Shown here: in pieces, positions 5,395-59,300 of the stretch
Layout: the number at the start of each line of letters is the position of its first letter
Position numbering within the stretch: the stretch's first letter is position 1
Assembly: GCA_008690995.1 (NCBI GenBank)
Contig: VRMN01000015.1
Coordinates: 186,001 to 250,000, forward strand
DNA length: 64,000 nucleotides
Source of the DNA: Porphyridium purpureum
Taxonomy: Eukaryota
Direction of reading: 5' to 3'
Translations under genes and position numbers: made by a program
The notes under the pieces: model-generated
What the model saw: only the letters and a program-made list of their open reading frames with translations
Database searches by the model: none
Told to the model about the DNA's origin: nothing

Positions 5395-5730
5395 ACCGTC
5401 ACACAGCTCTTCTCCCTTTATTACAGGTTTTTCTTCTTCTTCTTGTCGATTGACGGTTGCCTCTCTTTATTTTTCTCAATCTAGTCGTCCAACTCGACGC
5501 GGACTGTACGCCGACTTCGCTGAAGGAAAAGTTACGCAGGTTTGAAAATCCTCTGCTGGTCGACCACTTCACGACCCCTCAACTAATCGCGCAAAAAAGG
5601 GCTAGACAAAAAACTTGTACAAAAATATGCGATGTTGATTGAGGAGGCGCATTTGTCAACGGGCGCCGCGTCCTCTTTCTTGTCAGTACTTGGCGCCGCT
5701 CGTCTCGAGTCATGTTTGGCTTTAACAGTG
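5395..5730 (+). repeat. Dispersed repeat, copy A (homologous to 12560-12920)
   Basis: Shared blocks ttcttcttc..attgacggttgc, gccgacttcgct, cgcaggtttgaaaa.cctctgct, ccacttcacgacc, aaaaaacttgta, gggcgccgcgtcct and cttgtcag.acttggcgc.gctcgtct. Confidence 0.85.
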
Positions 5731-12559: not shown

Positions 12560-12920
12560 TACCGTCACGCAGCAATTCTTCCTTCTCAAAGGTTCTTCTT
12601 CTTCTTCAATTGACGGTTGCTCTCTTTTTACTTTTTTCCAATCTAGCCATCATACATGACACTTTATAGAATGCCGACTTCGCTCGAGGAAAAAACCCGC
12701 AGGTTTGAAAAACCTCTGCTTGTCGGCCACTTCACGACCATTTAACCGGTCGTGCAACAAAAGGATTCCATAAAAAACTTGTAAAATCAATTATGCTGCC
12801 CATTTAGGGGTAGCGTTGGCCAAGGGGCGCCGCGTCCTGTTTCTTATCGGTACTTGGTGTCGCGCCCTCTTTCTTGTCAGCACTTGGCGCAGCTCGTCTT
12901 GAGCCACCTGCTTTGACCGT
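12560..12920 (+). repeat. Dispersed repeat, copy B (homologous to 5395-5730)
   Basis: Same blocks as copy A in the same orientation. Has an internal ~30-bp duplication at ~12831-12890 and is followed by (gaccgtgcatgc) x~3. Confidence 0.85.
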
Positions 12921-14871: not shown

Positions 14872-15769
14872 GTCCGGCTCTGACGATGGGGACAGGGAGA
14901 CGCCAGGCACGGGCGGCACGAGGAAGAGGAGGCGCCGCTCCTGGGTGCACGAGTACTTCCAGCAGGATGAAAGGACCGCGGACTGGATTTGCAGACTGTG
15001 CATGGACCTCCAGGCGCGCGGCGAGGAAATCCATGACACCAAGGTCGCGCGGTACGCCGCCACCACCAGCACGTCGTCCATGGCGAGGCACCTGATATGC
15101 AAGCACAAAGTGTCCGGGCCGAACGGCGCCCCAGCCAGGTGGGCACAGTACATGATGGACGAGCCGCACCAGGAGCGCGTGGCCGTCGTGATTGCTGCCG
15201 GCTCGGCCGGAGCGGCGCCGGGTGCTGCCACAGCGCCGTCGTCGGCTGAGGACGGCAGTGGGCTGATTCAGGTCGTGACAGAAAGATCTGCAGCGACCAC
15301 ATTTCCTACGCACCCCGCCGAGACGCGCGCCCTTACCATGCCGCCACTGCCCAAGCCGCCCGTCATTCCAAAAGTGCCGCTCAAAATTGCGAAGCAAAAA
15401 CGGCCGCCGTTTGACGCGTCCGCAGGTGCGTTGCTGGTGATTGACGTGCAGAACTACTGCGCGGCGCCCGGTCGCGGGCTGAACGCGGGCAAGACAGCGG
15501 AAAATGATCCGTATTGGTTCCAGGCCATCGACAACATGAACGCGAATATTCGAGAGTTGTTGAGTGCGTTTAGGAAAAAGAAGTGCGAGGTGATTTATAC
15601 GGTGATCGAGAGTCTGACCAAGGACGGGCGCGACATGTCGCTCGACTACAAGCTGTCCGGCTTCCATGTTCCGCCAGGCAGCTCGGACGTGGAGATCCTG
15701 GTGGAGTGTCGCCCATGGCGCGAAACACCGAGGCGCGACCTGAACTTGGCACTGCAGCGCGACTCGTGA
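14872..15769 (+). pseudogene. Truncated inverted duplicate of the BED-isochorismatase gene
   Basis: 14872-15709 is the reverse complement of 19121-19957. It lacks the N-terminus and the catalytic Lys/Cys half, and runs into unrelated sequence to a stop at 15769. Confidence 0.9.
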
Positions 15770-18819: not shown

Positions 18820-20145
18820 TCAGGACTCGAGCTGCTCCAAAAGCTCGGCGGTTGTGCACACTTGGCCAAAGCCTCGGAGAGTGTTCTCGGCGGCCGCCTG
18901 CTTCGACTTGGAGTGCGCAGCCGTAGCGTCTGCGACGAGCGTGCAGTAATAACCGCGATCAGCGGCATCTCGCATTATACCCTCCACGCACTGGTTGGTG
19001 ACCACACCGGTCAGTGCAAGGTGCGAAACACCCAGGTTCCGAAGCACATAATCAATGTTTGTCGAGTTGAAGGCACTGTGAGACGTCTTGCGAAGCACCA
19101 GCTCGTCGTCGATCGGCGCAACACTCGCCAGGATCTCCGCGTCCGAGCTGCCTGGCGGAACATGGAAGCCGGACAGCTTGTAGTCGAGCGACATGTCGCG
19201 CCCGTCCTTGGTCAGACTCTCGATCACCGTGTAAATCACCTCGCACTTCTTTTTCCTAAACGCACTCAACAACTCTCGAATATTCGCGTTCATGTTGTCG
19301 ATGGCCTGGAACCAATACGGATCATTTTCTGCTGTCTTGCCCGCGTTCAGCCCGCGACCGGGCGCCGCGCAGTAGTTCTGCACGTCAATCACCAGCAACG
19401 CACCTGCGGACGCGTCAAACGGCGGCCGTTTTTGCTTCGCAATTTTGAGCGGCACTTTTGGAATGACGGGCGGCTTGGGCAGTGGCGGCATGGTAAGGGC
19501 GCGCGTCTCGGCGGGGTGCGTAGGAAATGTGGTCGCTGCAGATCTTTCTGTCACGACCTGAATCAGCCCACTGCCGTCCTCAGCCGACGACGGCGCTGTG
19601 GCAGCACCCGGCGCCGCTCCGGCCGAGCCGGCAGCAATCACGACGGCCACGCGCTCCTGGTGCGGCTCGTCCATCATGTACTGCGCCCACCTGGCTGGGG
19701 CGCCGTTCGGCCCGGACACTTTGTGCTTGCATATCAGGTGCCTCGCCATGGACGACGTGCTGGTGGTGGCGGCGTACCGCGCGACCTTGGTGTCATGGAT
19801 TTCCTCGCCGCGCGCCTGGAGGTCCATGCACAGTCTGCAAATCCAGTCCGCGGTCCTTTCATCCTGCTGGAAGTACTCGTGCACCCAGGAGCGGCGCCTC
19901 CTCTTCCTCGTGCCGCCCGTGCCTGGCGTCTCCTTGTCCATCTCGTCCGAGCCGGACATCTGCTGCGGATCGTCCTCCGCATCCCGGAGCTTTTCCTCCT
20001 TGTCCTTTGCGTCGTCCTGCGCAGCGCCGCCCTCCTGCTCCTCCTCCACGACCGGGCCCTCCTTCTTCATCCCCACTTCCTGCTCGCCACCAGACCCTTC
20101 CTCGCCCCCGTCGCCACCTCGACGACGCCCCTTCCTCTGAATCAT
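18820..20145 (-). CDS. BED zinc finger fused to an isochorismatase-family cysteine hydrolase
   Basis: BED: RRRRSWVHEYF..ICRLC..TSTSSMARHLICKH. Hydrolase triad: LLVIDVQN (Asp), VLRKTSHSAF (Lys) and GVVTNQCVEGIMRDAADRGY (Cys). One uninterrupted 441-aa ORF. Confidence 0.88.
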   Translation of the reverse strand: MIQRKGRRRGGDGGEEGSGGEQEVGMKKEGPVVEEEQEGGAAQDDAKDKEEKLRDAEDDPQQMSGSDEMDKETPGTGGTRKRRRRSWVHEYFQQDERTADWICRLCMDLQARGEEIHDTKVARYAATTSTSSMARHLICKHKVSGPNGAPARWAQYMMDEPHQERVAVVIAAGSAGAAPGAATAPSSAEDGSGLIQVVTERSAATTFPTHPAETRALTMPPLPKPPVIPKVPLKIAKQKRPPFDASAGALLVIDVQNYCAAPGRGLNAGKTAENDPYWFQAIDNMNANIRELLSAFRKKKCEVIYTVIESLTKDGRDMSLDYKLSGFHVPPGSSDAEILASVAPIDDELVLRKTSHSAFNSTNIDYVLRNLGVSHLALTGVVTNQCVEGIMRDAADRGYYCTLVADATAAHSKSKQAAAENTLRGFGQVCTTAELLEQLES

Positions 20146-46643: not shown

Positions 46644-47558
46644 GCTCACCTACATACAATCTCCGACTCGACCAGCACTGGCGCGCTCTCGTTCGGCCTC
46701 GTGTCGCTTGTCCCCTCGGGTCGTCGCACTGTGTCCGTGCCACTGCGGCCTTTTCGATCCGACAAGCATCGCTCGGAAAGTACAGCGAGAACTGTACTTC
46801 GGACATCAAAAACCATTGTCTGTGGCCGAGAGGGAGACGGAACAGCCAGGAGCCGCCTCATCCGCGTCCGTCCCCTCCAGTCGTCTCGCTCCAATCCCAC
46901 GCACCGCAGAATTCCCGCAAGCCAGAGTTTTTAACCAAACCAACACTGCTTTACTCCACGAGTCTCTGACTCTCTTTCCGACGCTCGAACCAAGAGTCTT
47001 TCAAACAGTTTCGCATTTCTATACCCGCCTGCGCCCAAACATCTCCGTGCTGTCTCACGTCGTGGTGCCGACGAATACTCGCATTCATTCTCGCTCAATT
47101 TGCGCCCCAGCGCGTCGCGCATCCTCTTCAGCCGCTTGTTCTGTCTCACATGCATCTTCCTGTTCCAACTCCCTCTGCCGCTTCGGGAAGGTGCGCTCGT
47201 ATTATGTCAAATACATGATAATAGCGCTCAGCACAAGTGCATCAGGCCTTAGTTAATGCCAGCGGTGTTGGCAAAGTAGCATTGCATCGGAAAGACTGGG
47301 GGGTAGAGTTGTTGTTTGTTTGGTTACGAGTAAAGGTCTTTTACGAGACTCGTGCATTAGGGAAGATAGACGCAGCGGGAGGCGCGATTACTCTCCCCTA
47401 CACCGCCCCATCGACCAGCACCACATCCGGGAGGACTGATCGCTTTAGACCCGGGCGGGGACAGCTCTCACAAACCGGTTCAACTTGACATTTCGAAATT
47501 GTCACTTGTGTATCGAGTGGGGGGTTTCCACGCAAGCCGCTCGACGTCGCTAGATAGG

Positions 47559-48340
47559 ATGGCGTCCGGGACGAGATCTCAACGTGAGGGGCAAAGGCGC
47601 ACAGGTGGCGATGAGGCCGAAACGCAATTGAATCCTTGGGATAACATCAAGTCTGCGAACACGGACATGCAAGAATTGCTCGATCTCTGTAACGCGAGCA
47701 CAAACGACGAGATGGAGCTGATGATGGTAGATGCTGTTATGACCCTTAAAAGGCTCGAAACATTCGGTCTTGCGTGCCCGCTTGTGTGCCAAAAGTATTG
47801 TCGTGCGCGTGCACTACCAAACTTCGACGCAGGAACTAGAATCGAGAAGTCGTTCCAACTTTACTGTCCGGATGGAAAGCGTGAAGATACGGCTTTGAAG
47901 TTGGGCCACGATCACGCGGAAGTCAGCCCACGAACTGCCGATTCGAGCAATAGCAAGGTTTCCCAGTTCATTCGTCTCTTCCCCACCGAGCAGCAATTCG
48001 ACGGACACGAAACAGGCATTCCCTATTCCGCCTGGAGCCGTAAGGTGACGTATGTTATGAGGCTGTTAAATATTGATGGAAATACAGCGGCCAAAGCCTT
48101 GCCGTTGATCCTCAAAGGCTCAGCGGAATCGTTCTTATCAGCGAGCAAGCTGGGCAGGCTCCGGCCGCTACTCGACCTCCTGAAGAAAGAATTCGACGCC
48201 GAGGAAACGCGGATGATGCGTATGCTAGAGCTGCGAATGAAGAACTTTTCCGTCTATCAAAAGCGGGGAGTAGACATAATGTCTGCTTTTGCCGACCTCG
48301 TTGCAGACATGACCGACACGGCGACGCGAGTGGGCACCGT
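47559..48340 (+). mobile_element. Retrotransposon gag-like fragment
   Basis: QFDG..YSAWSRKV..AKALPLILKGSAESF..LDLLKKEF resembles a retrotransposon capsid. It is truncated and followed by LTR-like promoter sequence. Confidence 0.5.
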
Positions 48341-48414
48341 TCGACCCCAGTCACCTAGAACGGTTCGGTTAATCCGAAACCGGTAAGCCGTTCAACTGGT
48401 AGACCGTTTAACCG

Positions 48415-48529: not shown

Positions 48530-49424
48530 GAGGCGACAAGCCTGCTCGGACTAGCCGGTCAGGTCTTGCTCGGAGAGAGAAGAGGGAAGGATAGTAACAG
48601 TGAAGAGACCCACGGTAAAACACTCACATACACAGCTGAAAAAATTCGTGCTGGTGGTTTGGTGCGACGGGTCGCGGTTGTCGCTGCATAGCCACACACG
48701 TGCCACGGCGCCGGGGTCCGCCACTTTTCGACGGGCCTGTAGCAGGAGCAAGATCTGGTAGAAAGACATTCTTACGGTCGAGTAAAACGGAAAGCCTCTA
48801 TTCTGGTCACCTGCTCGTGTTTTCGCTGACATCATCGGCTTTGTCTACAAGCTTGGTCTTACCGCGGCGCCTACCTCTCCAGACACACAGGTGCGTAAGC
48901 ACAGCACTTCACCACTGCCACAGACACTACCATTTAGGCTTGAAGCAGAAAGATATAGATAGAGGAAATTGAGCGGTTGCTTTTTGTTGTCTGGTTGGTC
49001 TAGTCCATCCGCAGAAGACTTCATTTTTTGAAGAGTAGCAGTAAAGACGGCTGAGCTCCGCGTGGAAGACTGTGAAAGATTTTGTCTGTCACAAACGGAG
49101 CTTCCTTCATTACTTTCTCTCTCCTCCTCTACCTCTTCTCTTCTCCTTCCTAGCCTTTTTTCTTTGTTCAGCTGGTGCTGGCTCTGTTTAATACCCGCCT
49201 TCCGGCACCCAAACGGCTTGCATGGCGCGTTCAGCCCTCAGAATAACCCAATCCGATAACCCTCAAGATAACTCAGCTGTACATCGCAGTACACCTAACA
49301 ACTGTACGTTAAGTAAAGTACGCACAAATAAGATAGGACCCCGCCTACTTTCTTCCGACTTCATAGTCAATTCGATGGTTTTACTATGTAAGGTAGCCTT
49401 TTCCAACTTTGGTACAGTAAGACG

Positions 49425-49772
49425 CGTGATAGAGTCACAGAAATGAACGTGGGGGTCGAGGTCCAACACTGGTAAGGGGAGACAGCAAACCGAAATCCAC
49501 AGCCGAGAAGACAAGACCAAAAGGGTATCCACGAGTAACCTCCTTTAATCCGCGCCCTAATCTCCTCTGACTAAAAGCCAACTAAGCACGTCGACGGCGA
49601 CGCGAAAGGGTGCTGGTTGTATACCCGTGCGGCGCCATGGACGGCCGCCGTCGCCGCCCATATTGGTGCAGTGTGGGCACAGATTGAGGCTGCTGGCTGC
49701 TCACTCATCTGCAGCAGTACGACGGAACTGGACGCCCGCTCGATACTGGAGTACAGCTTGACCCCATTCACG
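49425..49772 (-). repeat. 3' LTR
   Basis: cgtgatagagtc...ccccattcacg; 9 substitutions versus 54845-55192 by my count. Confidence 0.95.
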
Positions 49773-49783
49773 CGCCCTCTCAA
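49773..49783 (-). other. Polypurine tract
   Basis: Minus strand TTGAGAGGGCG abuts the 3' LTR and resembles the Copia TTGAGGGGGAG tract. Confidence 0.75.
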
Positions 49784-49947
49784 GCTTAATCCATATCGAG
49801 CGCAGGCTAAAAGAGATTCATATCACAAGCCCCCAACAAGGGGGTATATAGCTAGGACTAGCCATACCATCATCATATCCATAACGGGTTGGTTTCACCA
49901 TACCCGAACAATCATAAGAGGGCGAATTGGTGCTCCGCCCTCACAAC

Positions 49948-52900
49948 CTAACACGACTCCGTGGCCGAAGGGGAAAGAAGGGATGACGAGAGGCCCCACG
50001 CGCACGCATGGCCGCGGAATACATCGGCGCTCACTGGCTTCGTGAGCGGGTCAGCCATATTGCCCCGTGTGGGCACGTGGTCAACGGTCACGAGTGCTTC
50101 ACGGTAAAGCTCGTGAAGCCAAGCCAGACAAAGTTTCTGGGTCTTGCTCGCATGGATCAGCCCTGGACTGAATCCCTTCATCACCGCGCCAAGCGCGGTC
50201 TCATTATCGCAGCGGATAGTGGCGCGCGGCCATCCCCGGCCCACATCCTCCAGGAAAAGTGCGATGGGAAACAGCGCGTTTTGCACTGCGCCATGGAGCG
50301 CCACCAGCTCTGCTTCGGCTGTCGAGGTCGCAACGCGCCTCTGACGTCTACTGGACCACTCGACAAGGTGAAGGGTATCACCGGACACCAAGAATAAAGC
50401 AGTACCGCTGGTTGAGCGACCGGGATCCAAATCGGAATCCACATAACAATGGATCATTATCTGAGCATTCTCCGCTTGCGGCACCGGATAGCGCAAGCGC
50501 ACATCTGCGTGTTTGTACAAGTACGCGAGGACCTCGCTGAGTGCGCGATCTGCATCAGCCGACCAGCGATCTGTGTGACGCGCAATCATTGCCACTGCGT
50601 GTGCGACATCGGGGCGGGTGGTCCTGGCGAGCCACATGAGCTTGCCCAGGCATGAGCGCACCTCAGACGAGCAAGAATTTGCTTCTTCGCTCGTCTCGAC
50701 TCGGGATGAAAGTGGTGTTGCCCTTGCGCGCCCACCTTTGTGGGCCGCAGTGATGTACCTGGCAAATTCGCAGCTATCAAAAATCCACGCGCCCTCCTCG
50801 CGGTACACATTCACGCCGAGGTAGCGGATTGGTTTTGCGCGCGTGCTTTCCGAGATGAGCTGCGCGCTCTTAGTGATGTTGAACATTCTTACTAGCTCAC
50901 GCATTGCCTCGCTCACCGAGTGTGTAGTGCCAAGGATGGCACCATCGTCCACGTAAAGGACGAGCAAAGTAAGCACGCCATTTCGTCTGCGCCAGTAAAT
51001 GTTCTTGTCCGAAGCCGACTCTTTCCAGTGTGCGGCACATAACTTTTCGCGAGCATAAGCCGAATAATCGAATCCCGCTCTGGGCAATCCGTAAAGTGCC
51101 ATCGGTATTGGCACGACGGGGTTTGGAATCGAAGAAATTTTCCGCATATCAGCTCGCGGCAACACAGAATCCAAGAACGGCATCAAGGATTTGAAGTACG
51201 CAAAGGTCGGACTTCCGAGTAACGGTGCATGTACATATGCAGCATCGACGTCAAAGAACATCGCATCTGCGGCCTCACCATGAGTATGGAGCGCAATCGA
51301 CACCGCAGCACGAATGCTCGAAAGGCCCGGAGGCCGGTCAAACTGCGGCACTTCGGGCGGGGCGCGCCGGCCTGTTGCATCAGTGATGTGGCACCCTTGT
51401 GCCACAACGCGGCACTTCAGCGCGCGATGCTCGGGAGGCATCTCACTGTTCTTAATAGCCATGATTGGCTTCAAGTTCACAAAGCGTGCTTGCTTTGCGC
51501 GTGCAGCCTCGTGCTTGCTGACCACCTTATGAAACGGCAGAGCGCCGCTTCCTATAAGTGTCTGCATCTCCTTCTGAAACGCAATGCGGCCTGGCTTTGT
51601 GTGCGCGTGATTGGCAAATGCCACGATCTCAGCTACACCAAGTTCTACAACGTCACCGCTGCAGCTTGCGGTGCGCCCATGTTGAGCGCCATGCCCTTCC
51701 TCCGTCGGCTCCTGCTGCGCCAGCTGCGCCACGCCTAACACCATCTGCATAGCGCGCGTGTTCCCGGTCTTGATGCCGCGCCGATGCTCTTTGAGACCCA
51801 TGGCGCGCTCGCCGAGTAGGCCCATGGCTGCCGCATGAGATCGCAAATCCTTGCTTCCAATGCCGCGCAGTGGCTCACCTCCGCTTTCACCGATCAAGGA
51901 CCAATTAGGCCCGTGCTTTTCGCATCCTGCGCTGAGCGCGTTGTTCATATCTGCGCTCCAGACGCGGCGTTCCTTCTTCCTCTGCGGCGGCGAAACAAGA
52001 ACAACCTCGTTGTCTTCTTGCTGGGCTTCAGCGCTTTTATCACCGGGCAGACTTGACTGAGTATGCTCCGATGATCTATCGCCCTCGGATTCGTGCATGC
52101 TGTCCCGCTCCGGCATTACCCGAGCCATTACACCCTCTTCAGATGGGCGCTCCTTCTTGGGAAATTCGTTTGCTGATAAAGACCACTCTCTTACCCACCT
52201 CGCCGTTGTGGGCCGGAGGTCGGCGTAGGGTGCGGCAAGAAGGTTAAGGGGTGTTCGCGTTGTTGTTGGGGTTGGCATGCGTATGCCGATGACGAGTGCC
52301 AATGTGCCCGGTGAATCGTACTTTGTGTGCTCGGGCGCCAAGACGTACACGCCGCAGCCGAACGGCGGAAGCTCACGGTTCCAAGCGAACCCGTAGCGAG
52401 CCTCATACGGCGTCTTGCCGTCAGCGCCCTCCCACTTGACGTTGCGGGCAGCTGCCCAGTACTGAGCCACAAATGCGAACCACGGCGAATCGAGTCCGGC
52501 GGCGGCAATGCGTGAACGCCCGCGTTCAAGTCACGATGCATTCTTTCGTGGATGGCATGCGTATTGGGACGGTGTGGGAGCATGATTTCGTGGGCTACCA
52601 GGTTACCTTTCAGGGCTGTCTCGAAAGCGCCTTGAAACTCTCCTCCATCATCGGTCTTGACAAGACGCGGCCAGCCGCGTCCGCGCTGTATCTCGATCAG
52701 CGCCATCAACGTGCTCTCAGATGTTTTGTTCGCAAGCGGCGCGACTACCAACCAAGCGGTTGCCGCATCACGGTGGGTCATAAGCCAACGTGTTCCACAT
52801 ATGCCCGTCTCGGTTGGATCAACTAAGTCGACCGATACAACATCGTTAAATCCCTCGAATTGGGAATTTTCCTTCTTACGCGGCGCGCGAAGTACTTTCA

Positions 52901-54536
52901 ACTTCGCCGCCTGACAGGCATCACAACTTGCTTTGGCGGGCATGTGCAGCACTCCGTGCTCATCTTCTGGCACCTCTTCGTTAGCGCGCGGTGCGTGCGC
53001 CTTATGCCCGCTTGCGACGGCACACTCAAATGGTTTCTCCGGCTCATCTGCCGGTGCTTCAATTGCGGCAGCTGGCCCAGGAATACTTTTCCCAGCAACT
53101 TGAATTTTCAATTCATGTGCATGTAGCCAGTCCAAGCCGAGAATTAACTCATGATGCCCTTGATGCACCCACGCATTTGTGCTCTCATCAGTCGCGCCGG
53201 GCGCGACGAGCAGGAATGAGGCTTTGCCATGAATTGGCTCACTGCGCCCATCGGCCAATCGGATGCGTGGCCCGTTCGCTCCGCACTTCGTGTACGGCAC
53301 TCACAAGCGGCGACACAAAGCTTGCGAGATGAAGGTTGCGGTGGCGCCAGTATCAACAATGGCCCGAGCCTTGTGCCCGTTGACGAATACTGGCAGTCGA
53401 ATTAGATCCGAAGCGCCGCTGACGGCGCTGGTTCCAATCTCGTACTCGGCCACACCCAGCTCTTGCGTGCAATCTGCGGCCCAGTGGCCGCGTCTTCCGC
53501 AGTTGCGATAAGTATCAGCACCGAGATGATTGCCTATTGGCGGCCCACGGTTTCCCTTTGATTGCGCCTTCGGCACGTTCTTGCCTTTGTTGTTTCGTCG
53601 GCCATACCTCCGACGCGGCCCTTCAGCCGTCCCAAGATCCATCGGCGCGATGCCATCGTTGGAGAAGGCGGACGCGTGGACGCTCTGCCGATACACGGCA
53701 TCAATTGCCAGTGCCGCTCGGAGTGCCTCATGGTAGTCGGCGGGCTGCTTCAACAGCACTTGCACTTAGATCTTTGCCTGCAAACCGCGCACGAAGCGAT
53801 CGAGACGTTCCGGATCGCTGACGGACGGAAGGCGAAGTAGGCAATTACCGAAATCGTTTGCGTACTCATGCACGCTTCGATTGCGGTGCACGTAGGCAGC
53901 GAGTCGGTCACGAGCGATCTGACTTCAAGCAATGGGTTCAAATTCCCTCTTAAAGACGCCAATGAAGCGGTCGAACCTGATCGGTTTCGGTTCCAGCACG
54001 GACCACCATAGCCTCGCGGCTCCGTGAAAGAAAGATGCGGCTACACGCACACATTTCAGCTCCGCGTCGTCATCCCATGTACGACCGGCAAGCTGGTATT
54101 CCTCTCTCAACTGTGAGAAGATGCGATCGTTCGCGGCGTCGCACCACGACGCGACCACAAGTGCGTCGCGTTCTCCGAGGAAAGCGGGCATGGGAGCGTG
54201 CTTGACTTGAGACGTCGCGTCAACGCGCGAGTATGCGTCATTGCGCACGCGGTGCAATTCAGCGGCGAGCGCTGCGCGCTCTTCCTGCACCTGTCCAATG
54301 AGTTCCTCGCGCATGCGCGAAAACTCTTGAGACATGGCCTGTCGCATGAGCTCAATATCGCTCTGCGCGGCAGCCATCGTCGGCTGATGATGCTGCTGTG
54401 CAGCTGCCTGCGCAGCCAGCTCGGCCTGCATGGCCTGCATGGCCTGCATGGCCTGCATGGCCTGCTGCTGCTGGCGAGCTAGCGCCGCGTTGCGCTCTTG
54501 CTCCAGCCGGGTGGGGGTCCTATGACCTGACTCCAT
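49948..54536 (-). pseudogene. gag-pol polyprotein with three in-frame stops (53925, 53766, 53301) and one frameshift (~52508)
   Basis: Gag AASFFHGAARLWW..FKREFEP; knuckle (Y)RNCGRRGHWAADC; PR AIVDTGATATFIS..LILGLDWL; INT H..LHMP..SCDAC, VSVDLV, KTDDGGEF, HERMHR; RT KCRVVAQG, DVDAAY, ALYGL, LYVDD; RH YVDSD, STAEAE, CDNE, NMADPLTK. Confidence 0.93.
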
Positions 54537-54830
54537 GTGGGAGTAACTTCTGCTTTGTGCCTACTACACGAGCCTACGTGCGATCGTTCCTTTGCAACGA
54601 GCCTCTCGTTCTAATTGCACGCTACAAGCCTCTTGCTCGTACGTCTGTTTGTGCGCGCCGTGCCTTCTTGCACGCGTCACTCAACGATCACCGGTGCGGC
54701 GAGCTCCTCGCTCGAGCCGTCTTTGCGCAACTGTCGCGTTCGCGCTGTGCCTCGCACACGCCGTCGCTGTTGTTCGCTTCACGCCGTGCCCTTGCACGCG
54801 TTACTTTGTTGCAGCTGTGTTGTTAGCGAC

Positions 54831-54844
54831 CTAGGCTCATAACC
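54831..54844 (-). other. Primer-binding site complementary to the initiator tRNA-Met anticodon arm (half-tRNA type)
   Basis: Minus strand GGTTATGAGCCTAG immediately follows the 5' LTR, as in copia/Ty5-type elements. Confidence 0.85.
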
Positions 54845-55192
54845 CGTGATAGAGTCACAGAAATGAACGTGGGGGACGAGGTCCAACACTGGTAAGGGGA
54901 GACAGCAAACCGAAATCCACTGCCGAGAAGACAAGACCAAAAGGGTATCCACGAGTAACCTCCTTTAATCCGCGCCCTAATCTCCTCTGACTAAAAGCCA
55001 ACTAAGCACGTCGGCGGCGACGCGAAAGGGTGCTGGTTATACACCCGTGCGGCGACATGGACGGCCGCCGTCGCCGCCCATATTGGTGCAGTGTGGGCAC
55101 AGATTGAGGCTGCTGGCTGCTCACTCATCTGCAGCAGTACGACGGAACTGAACGCCCGTTCGATACTGGAGTACAGCTTGACCCCCTTCACG
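54845..55192 (-). repeat. 5' LTR
   Basis: cgtgatagagtc...cccccttcacg, same length as the other LTR. Confidence 0.95.
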
Positions 55193-55315
55193 AGAAGCGC
55201 GCGCAAAAAGGTTAGGACCATGGAAGAAGATCGGCGAAAATCCGGAGCTGGGCGTGGACAGGTAGCACAGAGTTTGACTCCAGTGCAAGCGCATTGTCGG
55301 CACAGCCGCTCAGCT

Positions 55316-56330
55316 ACCATTGGGCGCAAAAACGGGCTTTCGGAGCGCGAAAAAGGGTCCATTTTGGCCGTGAAGGCAGCCGGTGACAGTCTGCACGCAA
55401 TATCGGGCAAGGTAAAGCGCTCCCGCAACGTCATTCGCCGCTATTTGGCAGATCTTGATGCCTACGGCTTGAACTACGTTTCGGACAACTCATTGAAGCT
55501 CATGCCGGCCGTTGTCAAGAGAATCACAAATGTTGCAAGGTCGAGACAGTTTTCTACATCACGCCAGATGGCGAAGAATCTGCGCCTGCGCGGGGCAAAG
55601 AACATCGAATCGTTGGCATAAATCCGGAAAGCCACGCATCAGGAGTTTGCCTTCCGCCGGATGCCAAAGAATCCGCCTTTGGCAGTGGAACGTAAGCGCA
55701 AAAGATTGGACTGGGCCAGAGCGCATATGGCGTTTGGCGAGAAGTGGAAGAAAGGTGTCTCTACGGACGAAAAGAAGTTCAATCTGGACGGCCTGGATGG
55801 ATTCCATGCCACATGGATGGATAAGACGAAAGTCCCTTTTGCTTGCTGGTCTCGTCATAGTGGTGGTGGGAGCCTCATGGTTTGGGGTGCAATTTCAAGC
55901 CGTGGAAAACTGTGCCTTCACTTTGTTGAAGGCACGGTGACTGCTGACAAGCACGTGCGCACGCCGCAGGACAAAGAGCTCTCTCCGAAATGCCGAGCTG
56001 CTCTGGGCAATGACTTCATTTGGATGCATGACAACTTGAAGCCACACACTGCAAACTTGAAAGCAAACATTTTCCGAGCGCAGAACGTTAATCTTATTCA
56101 GTGGCCTGCGTACTCACCAGACTGAAACATCATTGAGAATGTCTGGGGCATTCTTGCTCGGAAGGTTTTCGAGGGTGGAAGACAATATACGACCGTGAAC
56201 GGACTGAGGAGCGCTGTTCTTGCTGCATGATACACCATCGAGCAGGCTACCATTGACAACCTGTATTTGTCTGTAGACGATCACGTGTGGGAATGTGCGC
56301 GCCGCGATGGTGGATATGTGCAGGGTAATC
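55316..56330 (+). pseudogene. Tc3-like transposase, disrupted
   Basis: HTH GRKNGLSEREKGSI..KVKRSRNVIRRYL; RLDWAR; STDEKKFNLDG; GGGSLMVWGAIS; HDN..PH..WPAYSPD*NIIENVW (D34E spacing). Frameshift at ~55600 and stops at 56123 and ~56228. Confidence 0.92.
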
Positions 56331-59300
56331 CGAGTCAGTTTCGCTTTCGTCTTGCTTCGTAATTGCTCGGGCAAAGTGTGGATTCCTATCCTTTTCGACC
56401 CCCTGTTTGGTCACTTTCCCTCTCCCTTCTTCCGTACCTTGTCCTTTTCATAGTAAAAAACTGTCTTTTTCATATGAATTTCTAAAATTGATTAAAATAT
56501 GGTGGGGGGTTCTATCCATTCTGGTCGCACTTTACACTCAGTAACTGTACCTGTCCATACTCGCTTTACTGAGGCCTGCATCAGGTCGCACGCGACAAAA
56601 GAAGAGAAAGAGAGCAGGGAGAGACGGATGAGTTGAATGAAAGAGGACGAAAGAAGCCCGGTTTGTGCCAGACACAAACCACGATCGTGGATAATTTTGA
56701 TTCCTAGCCCGCGTTTGAAGCGCTTGTCGGGTTCAGACCGCCTGTGAACGCGACATTCGCTATTTTACATGTAGAAGAAGATTTGCTCGCAAGCCAAAGG
56801 GACAAGGTACGGAAGACGTCATCGACGACGTCGTCGATCGTGCCAAGATCATGCAGCTCACGGAAGGACTCGTCTGATTCACCGAATGAAGCGCCCACGC
56901 AATCGCTCGAATTCTCGTCACTTCGCCGAAAATCTTGGAGTCCACGTACACGCGTGCGTACGTGTGTGCGTGCAAGCGTGCGTTCGTTTGTGCGTGCATG
57001 TTTGTGTATCTTCAGCATGCGGCGTTCGGATTCTTGACATGAAGCGCCAAAATATGGGCTTTCGTTGTGTTTTGTAAGCTTTGGTGTGCGTATCAAACAA
57101 ACAGAGCGGACACGCAAGCAGTGCGACTGAAACGGATAGGTCAGAATCAGCGTTTGCGTGAAGTCATGAGAGCCGGGAACCGAAATGATGTGCGCGAGAC
57201 GGCCATTGCCGAAAACGTACAGAAATCTGAAACCAAAACCGCTGAAGGTCCTATACCAAGCAAAAACGCCTCGCGCGCTTCGTCTTATGATCGACTTTCT
57301 TTCCTGTACCTCTAAATTAGAAGCGCTGCCTCCTGCTGCGCCACAACAAGTCATCAGGACAGCAAGTGAACGGCCCGGGGTGCGTTTGAGCCGATCCTTA
57401 CAAATGGCTTCCATTGTGACAAAACACCCGATTTTGTTTGCTGATGAACGTGGCGCCGCACATCGTACTTTCGTAAGGGGTTGCGCTCGTGGCGTCCGCT
57501 TGCGGGCCCATAACATTCCATGTCCGCCACAGAATATCTTTGCGCGTTTGACTGGGAAAGCGTGGCGACTTCCTGACATGGACCAATGCCCCTAAAGGTC
57601 CTTGCGCCTGCGGCCCTTTAATTGTGAGCAACTGACTCCCGTGCCTCCTGTATCGTGATCTTTTCAAAATCTTATCAGACACTATGAAGAAATCGCTGTG
57701 CGCATCGACAACGAGGCCACCAGCGCGTCTGTCCCTGTCATCAGGACGCCTTGACCCGTTGGGCCGGATAACGACATGCAAAGGGGACGACAGGATTGCT
57801 CCACGGGAACGATGCGGAAGGGGGCATGACCCCTCACTTCCACGCGGGCGACGCCGTAACATGGCTATGCCCTCTCATTTGCAACGATGAGCTTTGTGGC
57901 GGCTCTATGTATTGGGCAGCCGTCGTGTACTCAGTAACGCGACTCCGCAAGTAAATAGGTCCAAGCAAGTTGTTTCCAAGTTGAGGGAAAGGATGAACTG
58001 CGACAGTTTCCTTGACACCACGGCGGCTTCCTTATAAAGGGCACAAGCGGCAATTTTCGAACCGCTTCATTATTTGGCCGAAATTGTTACCTCATATCAC
58101 GTTTACAACAATTGGCAGAGGATTCGTGATTCAGACTGGGTGAGAGACATTACGTGGTTACTAATTTAAATAGCAGATCAATGTTCATGGCAGAATGCCG
58201 AGTCCATCGCCAATTGTGAGAACCTGTAGTCTAAAACCCTGAAGGGCAAGACAGGTAAGTGTACTTGAGACAGAAGGACCCTTTCAAAGCCTTTGCAAGC
58301 CATGTGGAGACGCAAGATTCAGGTTTCAGAATTGTTACTGGCATCGTAAGTTTCTAGAGATGCCTGCTTTAGTCGCGTGTGAGTCAATTAAAACTAAACT
58401 ACACGGATTAAAACTGAAAAAGCCAAAACATCGAATAACAAAATTAGCAAACTTTGAGCTACTTTACCGCCGCATTGAAGTCTATGTAACGATCCACCCC
58501 TTTTGTCCACCTGCAGCTTTTTTCTAATCGCCTCTTTAATCTTTTTGTTACAGTCTAAAGTCTATTCTAATGGGCACTGTACCACTCGGTACAGTGCATC
58601 GGCCCCCAAAATAACTGGGCGGTCCGGTTAGCTTTAGGGTCTAGTTGTAGGGTATTTAAGCTCTGCCGCTTCACGGCGGGGATTGGAGAAAGAGAGCGAG
58701 AGACAGAAGAGGAGAGAGAGTAAAAGACGTTGGTTTTGAACGCTTGGGGTCTGGGACACGAGCGGACGATTGGGGTAACCCAAATCGTGGCATCTAGGCT
58801 GTACCACTCGCTCGCTGCGCAAAGTCAATCAAACGGTTGACGATAGTCATGAGGCTAGTGAATCTGACGAATCAATACAGCTGAAGTGCATTCCGTCCGC
58901 CTCATAGCTTTAATCGCAATGTGAATAGGTTTGCGCAGGCCAGACCATATTGAGTGGGACACAGACGGCAAGGTATGCATTTACTGATGCCAAAAAGGTG
59001 AATGTCGACGGGCAAGATGGTTTCCACAGAACAGGGCCCGAGCTTGAAAGAGACGTTGAAGTCCTCGCGACACTCCGACGGTAGCACATGTTCAACTGGG
59101 GCGCCGTCTTCGCGAAAGCAAAGGCTTGCCGTGATCTCATGAACTGGACGTTAGCGGTTCAAATGTATTCTTCTTTGGTTCATCATGATGGTGTGCGAGT
59201 TTGATTTTGTTTATGTTTAGCTGAGACACGATGCAAATGATTGCACACCAGTCTTCTGCTAAGGCACTTCATATGCCATAGAGAAATTGAATTTCCAGAC

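Follow-up and report, generated by a model that had tools for sequence, protein, structure and literature searches.

What is a Myb-like segment doing behind the integrase of a Copia-order retrotransposon? The question is raised by a stretch of 64,000 nucleotides of Porphyridium purpureum DNA (contig VRMN01000015.1, positions 186,001 to 250,000; the whole stretch is called the window here), in which a long terminal repeat (LTR) retrotransposon of 5,768 bp runs on the minus strand from 55192 to 49425, bounded by LTRs of 348 bp each. A preliminary description of this DNA had noticed a Myb/SANT-like segment in the Pol polyprotein, C-terminal to the integrase and ahead of the reverse transcriptase (RT), and had proposed that it might be a captured DNA- or histone-binding module. 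The segment sits in an 860-codon open frame (49948–52530), between the C-terminal part of the integrase and the RT. Even if no one score is strong, sequence, profile and predicted fold agree on a real single-repeat Myb-type domain, and we think, with a probability of about 0.5, that this integrase-tail Myb binds host DNA and biases in this way the choice of insertion sites (DNA-tethered targeting).

The interval 51822–51978 (minus strand) encodes the 52-residue peptide of the preliminary description, preceded by one extra lysine. These 52 residues match the Pfam Myb_DNA-binding model at E 0.014, below the curated cut-off, and find one match among PDB sequences, Tbf1 (8x6d, S. pombe-type), at E 0.012. 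The sister family P0004, which is 44% identical to the window's family over 998 columns, reaches E 3.3e-5 and 24.3 bits with the same Pfam model (cut-off 24.4) over profile positions 1–43 of 46, and the model is also matched by P0020 (E 0.0076) and P0021 (E 0.036); a scan of seven proteins with NCBIfam gave no match to a Myb model. The profile comparison proposed at the outset did return Myb, with the window copy itself scoring too low. Since the domain falls just under the Pfam cut-off, standard annotation misses it, and it may be under-counted elsewhere. A profile built from element sequences alone (four segments, host Mybs left out) retrieves 15 PDB sequences at E ≤ 1, of which 14 are named Myb, TRF, Tbf1 or Terfa; the best is Tbf1 (E 5e-5), and the remaining one, RSC8, comes second (E 7.6e-4) through a Myb/SANT-like stretch. 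The chains matched also comprise c-Myb and its relatives, TRF-type chains and a SHAQKYF-family protein (6nvz), which fits profile positions 3–52 at E 0.083. In the tryptophan core the first and second Trp are kept and the third is replaced by an invariant Ala, as in Tbf1.

Structure prediction gave the three-helix bundle that had been anticipated. The AlphaFold2 model, built on a nine-row alignment of element proteins, has helices at residues 15–28, 32–38 and 48–58, with a predicted local distance difference test score (pLDDT) of 84–86 over residues 11–60; a 17-residue extension behind the bundle has low pLDDT and lies at the cut end of the model. The top six Foldseek matches are the Myb domains of the telomere proteins Tbf1, TRF1 and TRF2 (probability 0.91–0.99, E 0.37–0.88). 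VIA-align also places Tbf1 (Z 7.1, root-mean-square deviation 3.5, 64 residues aligned) and TRF1 (Z 7.0, deviation 2.3, 50 aligned) at the top; other Myb classes trail them by at most one Z unit, and Myb/SANT domains head both lists. A structure search of the Atlas with P0004 returned ten Myb clusters, several of them TRB/TRF-like and all below the bar for naming. The nearest fold of the model is that of a telomere-protein Myb, and the TRF/telobox-like single-repeat pattern read from the letters is upheld by the best matches in sequence and fold. The marks by which the Myb/SANT superfamily is recognized, namely a three-helix bundle with helix-turn-helix, a Myb profile match and a spaced tryptophan core, are all found in the segment, and the position assigned to it, behind the integrase and before the RT, is confirmed.

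An early doubt was that the segment might be absent or unconstrained in intact family members. It is neither. Constraint was judged at the protein level in an alignment of four families, P0010, P0021, P0004 and P0020, which are 41–64% identical. The Myb and its extension have 26 of 65 columns invariant and none gapped, and the two flanking linkers together have 6 of 140 invariant and 79 gapped; in the same alignment, 96 of 277 RT columns and 57 of 140 RNase H columns are invariant. At this level, the constraint on the Myb is equal to that on the RT, between loose linkers. The conserved unit outruns the interval first described by 17 residues, to 51775.

The class of the domain can be narrowed from helix 3, whose invariant residues are K49, R52 and S53 (model numbering). 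From the TRF1 alignment range and the TRF1 numbering, we take these residues to face the major groove. The basic residue three positions before the first Trp is kept in the four families and presumably holds the place of the minor-groove arginine of TRF1. Counted from the sequence of the four families, arm and Myb together carry a net charge of +4 to +7, and helix 3 one of +2 to +3. SANT domains that bind histones are as a rule acidic, and their usual pattern (acidic, with no basic recognition helix) is not found in this count. The invariant lysine and arginine of helix 3, together with the net basic character, favour DNA binding over histone-tail binding, so that of the two functions first proposed the former fits better and the SANT-like one is less favoured. 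The helix-3 residues K-D-x-x-R of telobox proteins are not conserved, LKDKAR of Tbf1 being VRSKAQ or LRSHAA in the element families, and since the Asp and last Arg of the Tbf1 helix are replaced, telomere-repeat binding is doubtful. The likeness of the third helix to SHAQKY-class Mybs, noticed from the start, also stands, with helices 1 and 2 of Tbf1/TRF type; only SHA or SKAQ is present of the SHAQKYF motif, and the match to 6nvz is weak. The domain thus has a telomere-protein Myb frame with a helix 3 of more SHAQKYF-like character, as a full member of neither class.

The domain order of the element (Gag, protease, integrase, linker, RT, RNase H) is that of Copia. Its features in the window are the following:

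54845–55192, minus strand: 5' LTR, 348 bp, ending in CG...CG instead of TG...CA; termini set by the target duplication and an empty paralog
54834–54844, minus strand: primer-binding site GGTTATGAGCC, directly 3' of the 5' LTR
53469–54536, minus strand: Ty3/Gypsy-type Gag, one CCHC knuckle; interrupted by two in-frame stops in the window copy
53124–53400, minus strand: aspartic protease, DTGAT at 53354–53340; gag-asp_proteas E 9.8e-7; one in-frame stop
52150–52958, minus strand: integrase, assigned by motifs, with HHCC finger, DDE core and C-terminal beta part; frame break near 52506–52530
51970–52149, minus strand: linker 1, acidic, 50–92 residues among families; 2 of 94 columns invariant, 56 gapped
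51826–51969, minus strand: Myb domain, 48 residues, three predicted helices with a basic arm ahead; 14 of 48 columns invariant, none gapped
51775–51825, minus strand: 17-residue Myb extension, best-conserved stretch of the region; 12 of 17 columns invariant in the four families
51640–51774, minus strand: linker 2, 24–45 residues among families; 4 of 46 columns invariant, 23 gapped
50809–51639, minus strand: RT of Copia type, very divergent; RVT_2 E 0.0023; YVDD at 50955
49948–50454, minus strand: RNase H and end of Pol; motifs YVDSD, DNETA and ADPLTK
49773–49783, minus strand: polypurine tract, directly 5' of the 3' LTR
49425–49772, minus strand: 3' LTR, differing from the 5' LTR at 9 of 348 positions
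49420–49424, no strand: target-site duplication AGACG, 5 bp; partner AGAAG at 55193–55197, one mismatch
49412–49419, plus strand: GTACAGTA, abutting the target duplication; an identical 8-mer abuts a second insertion elsewhere, a lead only

The window copy is decayed, a point on which the analysis goes beyond the preliminary description: it has in-frame stops at 53925–53927, 53766–53768 and 53301–53303, and the frame break near 52506–52530 lies in the integrase core. Its closest relatives, 96% identical, are named Copia proteins of P. purpureum, among which P0010 is an unbroken open reading frame of 1,521 residues; 3 of the 65 Myb and extension residues differ between the window copy and this intact protein. 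LTRs, a 5-bp target duplication, the order protease–integrase–RT–RNase H and a Copia-type RT are Ty1/Copia features; departing from that type, the termini are CG...CG rather than TG...CA, and Gag and protease fit Ty3/Gypsy-type Pfam models (in P0010, Retrotrans_gag at E 9.9e-13, Ty3_capsid at E 5.4e-6 and zf-CCHC for Gag). The integrase of P0010 matches an IS481-family transposase model at E 8e-11. Ty3/Gypsy-type Gag and protease (window 53124–54536) joined to integrase, RT and RNase H in Copia order are also seen in P0021, P0026, P0032 and P0050, whereas in P0074, a member of the same RT group, protease and integrase are of the standard Copia kind, a contrast that points to swapping of modules. 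The empty paralog of the insertion site (contigs of the sequencing runs X4 and X7) confirms the target duplication and shows that the LTRs end in CG...CG. When the LTR ends were examined (window 49425–49433, 54845–54853, 49772 and 55192), other copies were seen to share the CG start and to have an LTR ending in a different 9-mer, which finishes in TG before the primer site. We assume the primer-binding site to be of the internal (half) initiator-tRNA type. A 338-codon open frame at 47370–48386 of the window looks weakly Gag-like by eye and has no Pfam match, and next to it more repeat-like DNA extends up to 49300.

The place behind the integrase is not reserved for Myb. The preliminary description had likened it to the slot where other elements carry reader domains, and the relatives agree, as they carry there either a zinc cluster or a CW finger. 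An undescribed CxxC-CxxC-H-C-C-C cluster follows the integrase in 36 of 173 proteins, whose sources are named organisms, MMETSP and metagenomes; it is located at 953–992 in P0026, at 326–367 in P0027 and in 34 other proteins. Eight of its residues are likely metal ligands. No Pfam model matches it, and the window copy does not have it. In a two-domain model, of which only the zinc-cluster half is read because the Myb half is misaligned, the cluster folds with pLDDT 86–95; for this model Foldseek gave no match, VIA-align only matches to the helical half (Z ≤ 2.5) and the Atlas no named family, and no new fold is claimed. P0026 has a full cluster and then a weak Myb, P0051 and P0029 have a degenerate cluster and then Myb, and Myb stands without cluster in the window's family, P0004, P0020 and P0021. 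The other point beyond the preliminary description is that Myb adjoins an older zinc cluster or has taken its place; we infer, as the simplest reading of the sequences, that the cluster came first, Myb was added and the cluster was then lost. CW fingers, which are histone readers, occur between integrase and RT in two of 74 relatives scanned with Pfam, both distant Copia relatives (P0070, 1265–1306, E 1.1e-5; P0065, 333–362, E 9.3e-4). Judging from these sequences, the slot behaves like an exchangeable reader position. No chromodomain was found by Pfam in the element family, the scan covering 74 of its 150 relatives. P0074 has a Myb-like stretch (552–603) ahead of an RRSER motif at 660, a motif which we take to close Copia integrase tails usually. 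Distant relatives have further extra domains (P0094 1262–1415, P0091 1432–1494, P0085 733–830, P0152 702–730, P0090 34–147, P0052 1213–1375), whose kinds include 2OG-Fe(II) oxygenase, cold-shock domain, CCCH fingers, DUF488 and AAA_28; some of them may be gene-model fusions.

How widely is the domain spread? The 150 relatives come from a search with P0004. Applied to 168 proteins, the four-row profile adds P0115 (independent E-value, iE, 5e-23), P0029 and P0051 (about 3e-5), P0038 (0.0016) and P0037 (0.012), and finds a frame-broken piece of Myb in P0050; an iterated profile was set aside as evidence, being circular for the ten rows that seeded it. In a 24-row tree of RT and RNase H, the window's family falls within a nine-row clade with support 100/100, eight rows of which are named P. 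purpureum. By four-row profile or Pfam, seven of the nine carry Myb; P0026 has it weakly (Pfam E 0.19) and P0027 lacks it. Beyond this clade, P0038 has a Myb of the same subfamily (iE 1.6e-6) and its sister P0028 has none, and the Myb-like stretches of P0037 (Pfam E 0.0066) and P0074 are not recognized by the main-clade profile. Membership of these two stretches in the same subfamily was rejected, their scores being 4.6 and 1.7 bits versus a best shuffled score of 4.0. In a 63-row tree, none of the 48 rows outside a 15-row group has Myb, and 38 of those 48 have at least 150 residues before the RT. On the RT tree, the hypothesis that the 11 rows labelled Myb share one origin is rejected (approximately unbiased test p-AU 0.00014, the group having been named after an earlier tree was seen), so that losses, swaps or repeated capture come into play. 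No relative turned up in two metagenome scans, made with P0004 and P0037. In these sequences Myb is a lineage trait, which spans families about 40% identical, is patchy and is named so far only from P. purpureum.

The DNA around the insertions might tell what the domain reads. The window copy is inserted about 115 bp inside a decayed Tc1/mariner-like element, and loose ends in public runs gave two further insertion sites, one side each. GTACAGTA directly abuts the 5-bp target at two of the three sites, that of the window and one in runs X1/X4 (one study); its background is about 1e-5 per position, with three occurrences in the 64-kb window. We regard it as a lead and no more. The explanation of both GTACAGTA sites as a Tc1/mariner terminal inverted repeat was rejected for the window, where the likely ends of that element lie near 49304 and 56550, about 115 bp from the insertion. 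As for the telo-boxes proposed for testing, TTAGGG or telomere-like words are absent within 500 bp on either side of the window insertion (one insertion), and the single TTAGGG of the LTR is within chance. The host Tc1/mariner-like transposon (about 49304–56550) is decayed, with degenerate inverted ends, and its family was assigned from motifs; another model, P0006, fuses the RT of the window's Copia family to a Tc3-like transposase. At 1843–1868 of the window, just upstream of a malate dehydrogenase-like open reading frame, a palindrome of the GTACAGTA word stands beside the telo-box-like TAGGGTTT. As to expression, about one fifth of one RNA run gave 385 reads, 3'-biased and thin over the Myb, mostly oriented as expected for sense transcripts in a stranded library; most of them differ from the window at 40 listed variant sites and hence come from sister copies or another strain. 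Elsewhere in the window, part of a gene is present twice in inverted orientation (830 bp; 14872–15701 and 19128–19957, 99% identical); judged by eye, this gene encodes a BED-like finger and an isochorismatase-like domain. Direct repeats about 7,164 bp apart (5510–5712 and 12673–12906, 69–86% alike) are possibly old LTRs of another element.

If the integrase-tail Myb binds host DNA, the process could be envisaged as follows. The protease would cut between Myb and RT, leaving Myb as the tail of the integrase. Binding would follow the mode of TRF-type Mybs, with helix 3 in the major groove and the basic arm in the minor one; since the residues that read the telomere repeat are replaced, the bound sequence would be a different one. 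Tethering at the bound sites would then steer integration, like a chromodomain, the targeting domains of Ty1 and Ty5 or the integrase tail of Tal1. The Myb may be a captured piece of a single-Myb protein of the host, placed behind the older zinc cluster, which would have been lost later in the window's family. By analogy with those elements, targeting of integration by the Myb is likely. A bolder version seems doubtful to us: the element would have a sequence-guided integrase by means of a captured and re-tuned telomere-type Myb, its copies would land beside a short motif for which GTACAGTA is the candidate, and the zinc finger plus Myb design of R2 would have been reached independently in a modular slot.

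Several observations weigh against targeting through DNA. The role is argued from sequence, predicted fold and analogy, and none of the structural matches counts as strong when taken on its own scale: the Foldseek E-values exceed 0.001, and small helical domains often reach Z < 8. The Pfam match of the window copy covers helices 1 and 2 only. Just three insertion sites were seen, two of them from one side; at the X7 site the visible side has no GTACAGTA, and the motif was chosen in hindsight. P0027 and P0028 are of the same RT group and lack Myb, which makes Myb dispensable for the lineage. Myb-bearing rows span different integrase types, with a standard Copia integrase in P0074, and the domain may travel with the RT. 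In the search for a host donor, the four-row profile gave five P. purpureum clusters and one fungal Myb at E 2, which is weak evidence of absence as only 7,996 candidates were scored.

The same basic Myb could dock the integration complex on a protein instead of DNA, as a SANT-like tether to a histone tail or to a host chromatin or telomere protein. SANT domains are present in the fold lists, RSC8 stands second in the profile search, histone-reading CW fingers occupy the slot in two relatives, and the most conserved part of the unit is a Gly-rich extension; moreover, the targeting tails of Ty1 and Ty5 bind proteins, according to the accessible parts of PMC7459421 and PMC7175516. We think, however, that this is unlikely, as the best matches in sequence and fold are DNA-binding telomere Mybs and the domain is net basic with an invariant lysine and arginine in helix 3. 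It is also improbable that the Myb binds the element's own DNA, at the LTR ends or the LTR promoter, for assembly, end processing or expression and with no part in target choice. The unusual CG...CG termini could need an extra end-reading module, and the LTR has one GTACAG near its outer end besides its TTAGGG; but one hexamer per 348 bp is chance level (49 GTACAG and 16 TTAGGG in the 64-kb window), and copies differ at 4 of 9 terminal bases of the other LTR end.

A placement of the Myb at the N-terminus of the RT, where it would grip template or cDNA during reverse transcription, is quite improbable in our opinion. In its favour, linker 2 is shorter than linker 1, and Myb-like stretches accompany related RTs but different integrases; against it, the Myb-like stretch of P0074 lies about 90 residues from the RT, with the RRSER motif in between, and it is on the integrase side that such accessory domains have been described (accessible part of PMC2774666). 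That the segment is a relic of a captured host gene without function, or resembles Myb by chance, would suit the weak Pfam score of the window copy and the missing Myb of P0027 and P0028, and is largely refuted by a gap-free segment conserved like the RT across families while the linkers scatter, for which sequence and fold searches both give Myb.

The ways of aiming known from LTR elements are chromatin readers and short motifs by which host proteins are bound. If host-DNA binding by the integrase-tail Myb is true, a folded transcription-factor-type domain on a Copia integrase would be another route, the direct reading of host DNA, and a small, gene-dense genome is a setting in which aimed insertion pays. 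The families form a natural series for such studies (zinc cluster only, cluster and Myb, Myb only, neither), and if integration is sequence-guided the domain would be a natural model for retargeting DDE integrases. Among other mobile elements, a Myb-like region is found in TRAS elements and a Myb protein in PIF/Harbinger transposons. Our literature search, whose coverage is thin for subscription journals and Repbase reports, found no Myb domain in the Pol of an LTR element, and nothing on these Porphyridium elements. The accessible part of PMC2868851 covers only engineered TRF1 fusions, and those of PMC5445492, PMC12477314, PMC6356271 and bioRxiv 10.64898/2026.05.21.726589 hold nothing bearing on the matter.

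The closest known systems share either the slot or the domain. CoDi-A elements of diatoms, which are also of Copia order, have a chromodomain at the integrase C-terminus and are, with the Ty3/Gypsy chromoviruses, alike in bearing a captured host domain at that place (accessible part of PMC2774666, in which the word 'myb' does not occur); the captured domain here is Myb, not a chromodomain. In the same region of the Copia Pol, the integrase tail sets the insertion target in Tal1 and EVD, Ty1 and Ty5 (accessible parts of PMC11735389, PMC7459421 and PMC7175516, respectively), but there the target is set by short motifs, through binding of host proteins or reading of chromatin, and not by a folded DNA-binding domain. 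As for the domain itself, telobox Mybs (Tbf1 8x6d and 8ynu, TRF1 1w0t, TRF2, plant TRB/TRFL) have a similar basic arm and long loop before helix 3, and Tbf1 the Ala at the third aromatic position; in contrast, the Asp and Arg of the Tbf1 KDKAR are Ser and Gln/Ala here, the extension is the element's own, and identity is 23–30% only. The SHAQKYF class (6nvz) shares helix 3, RSHA or RSKAQ, with a full-length if weak profile match, but helices 1 and 2 are nearer to Tbf1 and the KYF end is absent. Finally, R2 non-LTR elements combine zinc finger and Myb, the latter being essential for recognition of the target DNA (accessible part of PMC11204384), and P0026 and P0051 also have a zinc cluster and then Myb. 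The likeness noted is one of architecture. R2 has N-terminal C2H2-type fingers and a nicking endonuclease, whereas in the present elements a DDE integrase comes before the module, whose zinc cluster has a different pattern. A Myb in the Pol of an LTR element is apparently undescribed so far: the slot is known, the domain is known from R2, and it is their pairing that is new.

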